Part shown: in pieces, positions 4,791-6,435 of the stretch
How the letters are laid out: the number at the start of each line of letters is the position of its first letter
How positions within the stretch are numbered: position 1 is the first letter of the stretch
Position numbers and translations under genes: made by a program
Notes under the pieces: generated by a model
The model's database searches: none
Told to the model about the DNA's origin: nothing
What the model saw: only the letters and a program-made list of their open reading frames with translations
Virus record (IMG/VR): IMGVR_UViG_2693429713_000014
Source: a virus
Taxonomy: Duplodnaviria > Heunggongvirae > Uroviricota > Caudoviricetes
DNA length: 27,323 nucleotides
Strand: one strand, 5' to 3'

Positions 4791-5459
4791 ATGTGTGGAC
4801 GCTTTTCACAGTCAATGACCCGTGAAGATTATCTTGCCCTTCTCGCTGATGAATCAGAACGCGATATTCCATACGATCCAGAACCCATCGGAAGATTCAA
4901 CGTAGCGCCAGGAACAAAAGTTCTGCTTCTGAGCGAACGTGATGAGCAGTTGCATCTTGATCCAGTTATCTGGGGATACGCCCCCGGTTGGTGGGATAAA
5001 CCGCCGCTCATTAATGCACGGTCTGAAACTGCTGCCACCAGCAGAATGTTTAAACCACTCTGGCAGCATGGCCGCGCAATTTGCTTTGCTGATGGATGGT
5101 ATGAGTGGAAAAAGGAAGGCGACCAAAAACAACCCTACTTTATTCACCGGGCAGACGGTCAGCCGATTTTTATGGCGGCGATCGGCAGCACACCATTCGA
5201 ACGTGGAGATGAAGCAGAAGGTTTCCTGATAGTTACAGCTGCAGCTGACAAAGGACTGGTTGATATTCACGACAGACGACCACTGGTACTGCTACCGGAA
5301 GCCGCGCGTGAATGGATGAGGCAGGATGTTGGAGGGAAAGAAGCAGCGGAAATTGCAGCCGACGGTGTTTTACCGGCTGATAAATTTATATGGCACGCCG
5401 TAACGCGTGCCGTCGGGAATGTGAAAAATCAGGGCGCCGAACTAATAACGCCAATATGA
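4791..5459 (+). CDS. SOS response-associated peptidase (SRAP/YedK family, abasic-site processing protein)
   Basis: 222-aa ORF beginning MCGRF (Cys2 nucleophile typical of SRAP) with GGAGG seven nt upstream. Length and sequence match recalled YedK-type proteins. Confidence 0.8.
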   Translation: MCGRFSQSMTREDYLALLADESERDIPYDPEPIGRFNVAPGTKVLLLSERDEQLHLDPVIWGYAPGWWDKPPLINARSETAATSRMFKPLWQHGRAICFADGWYEWKKEGDQKQPYFIHRADGQPIFMAAIGSTPFERGDEAEGFLIVTAAADKGLVDIHDRRPLVLLPEAAREWMRQDVGGKEAAEIAADGVLPADKFIWHAVTRAVGNVKNQGAELITPI

Positions 5460-5873
5460 TTACATCACCGGACAATCATCAAACTCCGCGTTCCTCGCAT
5501 CATTAATGATGTAAGTAATCACCCCGAATATCGCGGGAGCAGAACCGTAACCGTCATCATCTACTGGTAGCATCTCCCTTCTCCCGCTCTCCAAATTAAT
5601 CAGGTGGTGTTGAGGATGAGTCCGATATCGCTTGATCCTGAACTCCCCGTCGATTGCACATATCAGCAGTGAGCCATCGCAGGCAGTAAGTGACGCATCT
5701 ACCACAAGCAGCGCCCCCAGGAATATTCCTTCCCTGAAATGTGAACGCGATGCCCGCATGAAGTAAGTCGCTGCTGGCTGGCTGGCTGGCTGGCTGGCTG
5801 GCTGGCTGATAAGATGCTGATCGAGTGAGATCCTCGTTTCAACGTAATCGCTGGCCGGTGAAGGGAACCCCAT
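5460..5873 (-). CDS. UmuD'-like protein (LexA/S24 peptidase C-terminal domain), no umuC partner
   Basis: Residues GFPSPASDYVE...LLVVDASL...AIDGEFRIKRY resemble UmuD from about residue 25 onward. Start chosen at the ATG at 5873-5871 with GGAGG nine nt upstream; the track ORF extends further 5' without an RBS. Confidence 0.7.
   Translation of the reverse strand: MGFPSPASDYVETRISLDQHLISQPASQPASQPAATYFMRASRSHFREGIFLGALLVVDASLTACDGSLLICAIDGEFRIKRYRTHPQHHLINLESGRREMLPVDDDGYGSAPAIFGVITYIINDARNAEFDDCPVM
5771..5808. repeat. Tetranucleotide microsatellite (CTGG)8, with flanking partial units, inside the UmuD'-like CDS
   Basis: Directly visible: ctg(ctgg)x8ctg. On the coding strand it encodes SQPASQPASQPA. 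Confidence 0.95.
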
Positions 5874-5875
5874 GG

Positions 5876-6118
5876 CTAAAGTCCTCCGTTTGGATTGAAC
5901 AGCTGAAAGGTTCGGTTCTCGCCTTCCTGCGTTGATACATCGCGGAATGTTGTCACATAACATTCTATCCAATCGTTGGCCTGCTTCATCGTCCAGTGCC
6001 AGTTAACCTTACCCAGTTCCTGGACAAACCGCTGTGTGGTGACAGTCTTCCGGCCATTCGGTTCTCGCTGTATCGAAGCATGCCAGGCTATTTCAATATC
6101 GCTACGTTGTGGCATCAT
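5876..6118 (-). CDS. Small hypothetical protein (81 aa) immediately upstream of the UmuD'-like gene
   Basis: ATGATG at 6118-6113 preceded by aagaagggg RBS. Stop at 5876-5878 lies 2 nt before the UmuD'-like start, suggesting an operon. Function unknown. Confidence 0.45.
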   Translation of the reverse strand: MMPQRSDIEIAWHASIQREPNGRKTVTTQRFVQELGKVNWHWTMKQANDWIECYVTTFRDVSTQEGENRTFQLFNPNGGL

Positions 6119-6135
6119 TAACCCCTTCTTGAACA

Positions 6136-6175
6136 CTGGATAAAAAAACAGCATAAGCACTGTGTATCCATCCAG
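6136..6175. promoter_or_regulatory. Two putative LexA (SOS) boxes in the divergent promoter region
   Basis: CTGGATAAAAAAACAG (6136-6151) and CTGTGTATCCATCCAG (6160-6175) both fit CTG-N10-CAG with an AT-rich spacer. They lie between the divergent start codons at 6118 and 6193. Confidence 0.5.
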
Positions 6176-6192
6176 TAAAGAGGCAATAAGCA

Positions 6193-6435
6193 ATGTTCGT
6201 GGAACTCGTTTATGACAAAAGGAATTTTGATGGCCTGCCCGGTGCAAAAGATATCATTCTGGGCGAATTGACTAAGAGGGTTCACCGGGTCTTCCCTGAT
6301 GCTGATGTCCGGGTAAAACCGATGATGACACTGCCGGCGATCAACACTGACGCCAGCAAGCATGAGAAGGAACAGATAAGCCGTACTGTTCAGGAAATGT
6401 TTGAAAAGGCTGATATGTGGCTGGTTTCAGATTAA
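6193..6435 (+). CDS. DinI-family DNA-damage-inducible protein
   Basis: 80-aa ORF ending ...MFEKADMWLVSD, resembling the DinI C-terminus (...ESADDWFVSE). RBS aagagg upstream. Confidence 0.75.
   Translation: MFVELVYDKRNFDGLPGAKDIILGELTKRVHRVFPDADVRVKPMMTLPAINTDASKHEKEQISRTVQEMFEKADMWLVSD

Follow-up and report, generated by a model that had tools for sequence, protein, structure and literature searches.

What does a small group of DNA-damage genes do at the cargo end of a prophage, and which of these genes belong together? The locus that raises this question occupies positions 4,791 to 6,435 of a 27,323-nucleotide stretch of Caudoviricetes DNA (IMG/VR record IMGVR_UViG_2693429713_000014; this whole stretch is referred to as the window), and the chromosome of Escherichia coli fEC.1 is 100% identical to the window in a genome comparison. 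An earlier note, made from the letters of the DNA, had placed SOS and lesion-tolerance genes here in prophage cargo adjoining the invertase gene pin, and both the gene identities, as judged from family matches, and the location proved correct. The cluster comprises four open reading frames (ORFs) and two LexA boxes:

4791-5459, plus strand: SRAP/YedK paralogue, 222 amino acids (Pfam, NCBIfam, alignment to YedK structures)
5460-5873, minus strand: humD, a HumD-family UmuD' analogue of 137 amino acids (NCBIfam HumD equivalog; UmuD' alignment)
5876-6118, minus strand: small ORF, 79-80 amino acids, predicted winged-helix (homologues, phrog_3893, model)
6134-6153: LexA box A, CACTGGATAAAAAAACAGCA, 20.4 bits, rank 1 in the window
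6158-6177: LexA box B, CACTGTGTATCCATCCAGTA, 20.0 bits, rank 2 in the window
6193-6435, plus strand: DinI-family protein, 80 amino acids (Pfam DinI)

We propose that this module is probably a phage accessory (moron) unit wired into the SOS response of the host. The argument begins with the two boxes and the genes that diverge from them.

LexA boxes and the divergent genes

The region between the small ORF and dinI holds the two highest-scoring LexA-type sites of the window. We trained a symmetrised weight matrix on 20 E. coli SOS boxes, which themselves score 13-27.5 bits, and boxes A and B take mid-range values among them. None of 500 shuffles reached 20.4 or 20.0 bits, the shuffle maxima having a mean of 11.0 bits, a standard deviation of 2.4 bits and a highest value of 19.3 bits. 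The presence of two LexA boxes in the divergent promoter region, which had been claimed from CTG-N10-CAG patterns, is upheld by these scores; the bare pattern itself has 19 matches in the window and is weak evidence for a LexA site. The boxes are also conserved. IMG/VR contains 416 loci that encode a relative of the small ORF, and the related-loci counts given here refer to 80 of them, with the count of downstream genes using the 62 that have at least 350 nucleotides downstream. LexA boxes occur at matching offsets, ~35 and/or ~59 nucleotides upstream of the small ORF, in 78 of the 80 loci (59 with a pair and 19 with a single box; the other 2 lack one), and a divergent dinI is found in 61, which are all 61 loci of the Escherichia/Citrobacter type. 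Promoters read by eye overlap the boxes in both directions: leftward, a -35 element TTTACT (6179-6174) is followed after 18 nucleotides by a -10 element TATGCT (6155-6150), and rightward, TTGAAC (6129-6134) is followed after 17 nucleotides by CATAAG (6152-6157). The third-best matrix match in the window, CACTGAATGGAAAACCAGCA at 7636-7655, falls within the region of tail-fibre assembly genes and is probably a chance match, since its score of 13.5 bits is within the shuffle range.

The first gene on the leftward side is the small ORF, for which the second ATG, at 6115, is a likelier start than the one at 6118. The earlier note had named it simply as a small ORF. It is more than an incidental gene: it is the conserved first gene of a LexA-box operon, and in 61 of the 62 loci an ORF starting xGFP[ST]P, and encoding a UmuD'-like protein, begins 1-2 nucleotides after its stop or overlaps it (the exception is a Gly-to-Asp variant). 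This downstream partner is either of the 129-amino-acid HumD type, intact in ~48 related viral loci, or a UmuD'-like protein of 105-108 amino acids with no Pfam match. In the window, the TAG stop of the small ORF is followed by CC and then by the ATG of humD, and the humD Shine-Dalgarno sequence GGAGG is encoded by Gly-Gly codons of the small ORF. The first of these codons is GGA in 78 of 80 related sequences and the second varies freely. Because the gap is 2 nucleotides long, the Shine-Dalgarno sequence lies inside the last codons of the upstream gene and GGA is conserved at a synonymous position, we read this pattern as a signature of Shine-Dalgarno constraint and of predicted translational coupling to humD.

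The small ORF belongs to a widespread and well-conserved family. We found 121 homologues of ~79 amino acids in Escherichia, Citrobacter, Salmonella, Klebsiella, Enterobacter, Raoultella and others, and an exhaustive profile search returned 177 cluster representatives, nearly all of 44-148 amino acids. The protein matches phrog_3893 (E 1e-36), and scans against Pfam, NCBIfam and PADLOC gave no match. Over 69 different coding sequences, the ratio of nonsynonymous to synonymous substitution rates (dN/dS) has a median of 0.125, and the sense frame is the only one open in all of them. A confident AlphaFold2 model built from a 54-sequence alignment has a mean predicted local distance difference test score (pLDDT) of 88.7 and the order helix-strand-helix-helix-strand-strand. 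Many homologues carry the name "DNA polymerase V" in their source (NCBI-derived) records. This label is wrong; by sequence and model, the small protein is a predicted winged-helix partner of phage UmuD'-like genes. No functional description of it was found in limited literature searches. A distant subfamily (examples are Eeyore, HK140 and HK225 gp28) has the same layout, with the tail YWILRNMGRV and GGGAGG before the next start. On one error-rich long-read contig (ENA ERZ1332972, tig00000001, 3850-5300), a LexA box and a small ORF homologue are followed directly by a gene for an umuC-like Y-family polymerase, with no UmuD' gene between them, the sole such case among the loci examined.

HumD, the second gene of the leftward operon, scores 207 bits against the NCBIfam equivalog NF051876 (cutoff 120), and 213 bits with an 8-residue repeat insertion removed. 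It is 65% identical to HumD of phage P1 and 62-63% identical to N15 gp26, with a range of 61-63% over phiKO2 gp23 and gp26. The protein begins MGFPSPA, and in an alignment with UmuD' (1umu) its residue 2 corresponds to UmuD Gly25, leaving no N-terminal arm to cleave. The same alignment places a His at the position of the catalytic Ser60 and keeps Lys97. The Ser-Lys catalytic dyad of the self-cleaving S24 peptidases is not present in HumD, which is predicted to have the S24 fold and to be a non-peptidase. According to the annotation of the P1 record, P1 HumD complements UmuD' in SOS mutagenesis and is LexA-regulated. The UmuD'-like identity proposed in the earlier note is confirmed by these comparisons. 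Modulation of RecA filaments as the main role is not, as the protein belongs to the HumD family, for which the P1 record gives replacement of UmuD' in SOS mutagenesis.

On the rightward side, the DinI-family protein matches Pfam PF06183 (E 1.6e-20, 73.6 bits against a threshold of 24.2) and aligns with E. coli DinI (1ghh) through the C-terminal helix, and its gene is preceded by the ribosome-binding site AAAGAGG. It is closest to phage DinI proteins, with 62.5% identity to DinI of HK225, and falls below the cutoff of the NCBIfam equivalog NF007893 (41.7 against 111 bits). By these sequence comparisons it is a member of a phage subfamily and not an orthologue of the chromosomal DinI of the host.

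Taken with what is known of their relatives, from which we infer the biochemical activities of the module and its effects on phage and host, these features suggest the following course of events. RecA* would trigger self-cleavage of LexA, and both back-to-back promoters would open. From the leftward transcript, the small winged-helix protein would be translated first and HumD, coupled to it, next and in fixed proportion; the rightward transcript would yield the DinI-family protein. HumD would act as a UmuD' made in its mature form, with no call for RecA*-dependent cleavage, and, by analogy with P1 HumD, could pair with host UmuC for translesion synthesis of the Pol V type. The DinI-family protein may bind RecA filaments, as E. 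coli DinI does. Phage UmuD' analogues of this kind can spare a lysogen, or the phage as it replicates, the activation step of mutagenic translesion synthesis that depends on RecA*, and a LexA-wired HumD accompanied by a DinI relative and a second YedK could shift mutation rate, survival after DNA-damaging antibiotics and prophage induction.

Within this scheme the role of the small protein is the most speculative point. We entertain, as an idea that is unlikely to be right, that the small protein and the UmuD'-like protein together constitute a two-piece, genetically pre-split factor of the LexA/UmuD type, because the small protein ends where UmuD is cleaved and HumD starts at the post-cleavage glycine. 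When the tail of the small ORF, RTFQLFNPNGGL, is joined to HumD, phmmer aligns it without gaps to UmuD residues 13-24, VTFPLFSDLVQC, and in this subfamily the aligned tail ends exactly at the UmuD cleavage site. The length of the small protein (79-80 amino acids) is that of a LexA-type N-terminal half; the pair is predicted from sequence to be under LexA control and in fixed proportion in hundreds of temperate phages; and one contig has the small gene immediately before umuC. Against the idea, the tail extension is worth 2.7 bits, the tail of the second subfamily (YWILRNMGRV) differs, the tail also encodes the downstream Shine-Dalgarno sequence, the AlphaFold2 model puts TFQL inside the wing, and a profile comparison with LexA gave no similarity. 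If the two proteins did form such a factor, the small protein would be either a new Pol V accessory or regulator gating HumD/UmuC, or the DNA-binding half of a split regulator.

Three related ideas were considered and set aside. A programmed frameshift joining the small ORF and humD is unlikely, the frame offset varying among subfamilies (+2, +1 or -1). The exhaustive profile search was also used to look for natural proteins in which the small ORF is joined to an S24 domain; the few longer representatives (P0190, P0236, P0153 and P0248) have out-of-frame middles and look like frameshift artefacts. Homology of the small ORF to the N-terminal domain of LexA found no support in NCBIfam and Pfam scans of an artificial fusion of the small ORF and HumD, or in hhalign comparison with LexA.

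The repeat tract in humD and competing explanations

The humD gene of the window is in frame and contains a perfect tetranucleotide repeat:

5773-5808: (GCTG)9 on the plus strand, which is (CAGC)9 in the humD coding strand (TRF: period 4, 9 copies, 100% match)

Most relatives have three units at the same place, CAGCCAGCCAGC, encoding SQPA. The nine units here add SQPASQPA to the N-terminal arm of HumD, and the addition aligns as a gap against UmuD'. The frame is kept only at copy numbers divisible by 3, and other lengths lead to truncated products of 56-97 amino acids. Alleles of 3, 8, 9, 11, 13 and 14 copies were observed, the expanded ones being distributed as follows:

fEC.1 (the window): n = 9, in frame
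one metagenome contig: n = 9, in frame
a second metagenome contig: n = 8, out of frame
AH01, Ecol_545 and C1: n = 11, out of frame
CDF6 and one IMG/VR contig: n = 13, out of frame
GF8, GF75 and GF161: n = 14, out of frame

Strains with different repeat numbers have flanks that are ~99% identical. The pattern is that of a contingency locus: nearly identical strains differ in the number of repeat units within the gene, and this number decides whether the gene is in frame. Through slippage at (CAGC)n, humD would be ON in the window, at n = 9, and OFF in most of the sampled relatives with expanded repeats. Tracts of this behaviour are not common in E. coli, and this one would let mutagenic capacity be inherited and yet switched.

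The annotation of the source genome, NZ_CP085638.1, by the Prokaryotic Genome Annotation Pipeline (PGAP) differs from this description, as it flags humD as a frameshifted S24 peptidase (pseudogene). In the window, humD is in frame from the ATG at 5873. The PGAP feature, at window positions 5460-5989, starts at an ATG within the small ORF, taking in the 3' half of that gene together with humD. PGAP leaves the small ORF itself uncalled and annotates a short antisense fragment at 5996-6097, and the same is seen in five related genomes. The label "frameshifted" is found on every expanded-repeat genome looked at, including fEC.1, and also on a relative with three copies. Because the two-gene arrangement is conserved in 61 of the 62 loci, we read the label, for in-frame alleles, as a likely annotation artefact.

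This annotation is one of several points that weigh against a functional, SOS-wired module. Both promoters read by eye fall below the threshold of a consensus promoter scan, and the rightward -10 element CATAAG is weaker than the TATAAA of relatives. LexA binding and damage-induced transcription at boxes A and B are predictions drawn from relatives. The 8-residue insertion might impair HumD. Nine of the 11 expanded alleles are out of frame, and the insertion sequence IS421 interrupts the SRAP gene in E. coli Ecol_545 and C1, in copies of the cluster that are otherwise 99.6% identical; for these two reasons, selection on humD and SRAP in E. coli lysogens may be weak. Such observations are also what would be expected if the module, and humD above all, were decaying cargo that is drifting to loss in this E. 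coli lineage, with the repeat expansion as a neutral slippage accident instead of a switch. The two in-frame alleles among 11 are at or below the chance expectation, just 8 of 5426 complete E. coli genomes carry the whole cluster, and the degenerate rightward -10 and the IS421 copies in two strains fit the same picture. However, all four module ORFs are intact in this window, the low dN/dS shows strong purifying selection on the family of the small ORF, and the 129-amino-acid HumD is intact in the related viral loci counted above. The tract also changes far faster than its ~99% identical surroundings, which fits a switch as well as decay. Decay of humD is a serious alternative to phase variation, and we consider decay of the cargo rather improbable as an account of the module.

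Two further explanations keep the SOS connection and direct it at prophage immunity. The earlier note had suggested that the cluster could tune induction. In this reading, the coprotease activity of RecA* would be damped or sharpened by the DinI-like protein, perhaps with a contribution from HumD or the small protein, and the self-cleavage threshold of the LexA-family repressor would be set in this way, controlling spontaneous and induced lysis. The repressor of this prophage is a 208-amino-acid protein of the LexA family, an assignment taken from the record annotation, so that induction should depend on RecA*; a DinI-family gene sits beneath the LexA boxes, and LexA-box dinI homologues are conserved in many temperate phages. 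Yet non-polar deletions of the Gifsy dinI homologues left induction unchanged (PMC3121763). Those homologues are ~26% identical to the DinI protein here, and the phages that carry them use antirepressors. We regard a role in tuning induction as possible and rather doubtful. More doubtful still, and in our view very unlikely, is that prophage induction is triggered by the product of the small ORF, acting as an antirepressor under LexA control in the manner of Gifsy GfoA/GftA, 186 Tum or N15 AntC. The small protein is encoded directly under the LexA boxes, beside a dinI homologue and in cargo, which resembles the context of known antirepressors (PMC3121763), and the HK225 homologue lies opposite dinI with no UmuD' gene after it. 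These resemblances are opposed by the cleavable LexA-family type of the resident repressor, by a BLASTP comparison of the small ORF with Gifsy-2 STM1020.1n (GftA) that gave no match at E<=1, and by the coupling seen in 61 of 62 loci with a gene for a UmuD'-like protein, together with the umuC-like gene on one contig, which point to Pol V biology and not to immunity. An accessory unit wired into the SOS response remains our preferred reading.

The SRAP gene and the prophage setting

The SRAP gene had been counted by the earlier note as part of the cluster around the LexA boxes. It is a full-length member of its family, matching Pfam PF02586 over model positions 1-211 of 214 (E 8e-51) and NCBIfam PRK09951 with 463 bits (cutoff 349), and it aligns end to end with the sequences of E. 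coli YedK crystal structures (6kcq, 459 bits). In the alignment to 6kcq, the catalytic Cys2 (the start being MCGRF), Glu105 and His160 are kept. A ribosome-binding site, GGAGG, lies 6 nucleotides before its ATG. The gene is convergent with humD, the two stop codons abutting, and no LexA box was found upstream of it, the best matrix score there being 7.5 bits. Upstream lie features of its own:

4472-4516, plus strand: tRNA-Pro-like 3' fragment ending in CCA (alignment with AR_0128 and the right end of Gifsy-2)
4526-4555: hairpin and T-run, terminator-like, after the tRNA-like fragment; a conserved leader then runs to 4790, up to SRAP

E. coli AR_0128 has this cassette of tRNA-Pro-like fragment, hairpin and leader next to SRAP in a defective prophage that is unrelated, and Gifsy-2 has it at its right end, beside a SRAP-like sequence. 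Because SRAP is convergent, has no LexA box and is served by its own cassette, found elsewhere, we conclude that it is a neighbour with its own expression signals, outside the LexA-regulated unit. Among the 80 related viral loci, SRAP is in the same convergent position in 10 and within ~2.4 kb in 5 more. By analogy with YedK, the protein would crosslink abasic sites in single-stranded DNA and could add abasic-site shielding to the module. In the AR_0128 copy of the tRNA-like fragment, PGAP calls an 82-nucleotide tRNA-Pro; ARAGORN and Rfam found no intact tRNA or structured RNA in the window. The fragment was considered as the prophage attachment site and ruled out, as icd and icd' mark the ends of the prophage and, in other elements, the fragment accompanies SRAP. 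In the related defective prophage of AR_0128, a frameshifted fragment annotated as DUF4113 domain-containing lies between SRAP and pin. DUF4113 is a C-terminal domain of UmuC/ImuB, and the fragment hints that the slot between SRAP and pin once held an umuC-type gene.

In E. coli fEC.1 the prophage occupies the e14 site at icd, between icd and an icd' fragment/iraM. In the annotated record, one flank carries ycgX, iraM and the truncated icd' fragment; the opposite flank carries intact icd, an integrase/excisionase pair, the LexA-family repressor, Cro, and lysis, terminase, HK97-type head and contractile-tail genes. The module lies in the cargo end of this e14-site prophage, with an HNH endonuclease gene and a 271-amino-acid ORF on one side, and pin and tail-fibre genes on the other:

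6564-7151, minus strand: pin (Resolvase and HTH_7, Pfam)
2136-3104, plus strand: 322-amino-acid HNH endonuclease; PADLOC matches to PtuB-like (E 1e-23) and to a type IV methyl-directed restriction enzyme (E 2e-11)
3578-4393, plus strand: 271-amino-acid ORF, hypothetical in the source genome, with no match in Pfam, NCBIfam, PHROGs or PADLOC
12775-12837: run of N (masked bases) within tail/baseplate genes

The endonuclease gene has the place that mcrA takes on the K-12 e14 map. A PADLOC scan of the four module proteins gave no match to a defence system.

Comparison with known systems

Several elements of the module have close counterparts in other temperate phages. The phiKO2 record shows dinI (gp22), an annotated LexA site and a umuD' homologue (gp23) in the same divergent layout as here, and N15 gp26 has its own LexA box; in both phages, a LexA site with a umuD'-type gene follows the tail-fibre genes. 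They have a single LexA box and differ further from the present module in lacking SRAP, the repeat tract and a small ORF between the box and the umuD'-like gene. In P1, the arrangement lxr/LexA site/humD likewise provides a LexA-regulated UmuD' analogue that starts at the post-cleavage glycine and is the 65% identical HumD noted above, although its divergent partner is lxr (190 amino acids) and not dinI, and no winged-helix gene stands upstream.

The Gifsy dinI-antirepressor-irsA operon (Lemire et al. 2011, PMC3121763) also places a prophage dinI behind a LexA box, together with a small co-regulated gene. It differs in gene order, in a GftA that bears no relation to the small ORF, and in the non-cleavable repressors of those phages, whereas a LexA-family repressor is found here. 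We considered whether it is the same system and rejected this, since Gifsy-2 STM1020 (the 'irsA' homologue) is not SRAP and GftA has no relationship to the small ORF. The SRAP-UmuDC neighbourhoods on which the name SRAP is based, and SRAP genes in prophages, have been described previously (PMC3765255).

The host genes umuDC, dinI and yedK encode proteins of the same families as the module, and the YedK paralogue is full-length, at 459 bits. The phage versions depart from them in that HumD has neither the 24 N-terminal residues nor the catalytic Ser, the module has no umuC, and DinI is divergent (41.7 against 111 bits). Small proteins beside, or acting on, LexA/UmuD-type proteins in the DNA-damage response include DdrR of Acinetobacter, with UmuDAb, and gp7 of Bacillus phage GIL01, with LexA. 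We liken the small ORF to these by general role and claim no sequence relationship; the protein here is a predicted winged-helix protein encoded before a catalytically dead UmuD' analogue. In sum, we see in this cluster an ordinary representative of a class already known and annotated, that of SOS-linked phage accessory modules, and what it has beyond the annotated examples is a second LexA box, a conserved, predicted winged-helix first gene and a slippage-prone tract in humD.

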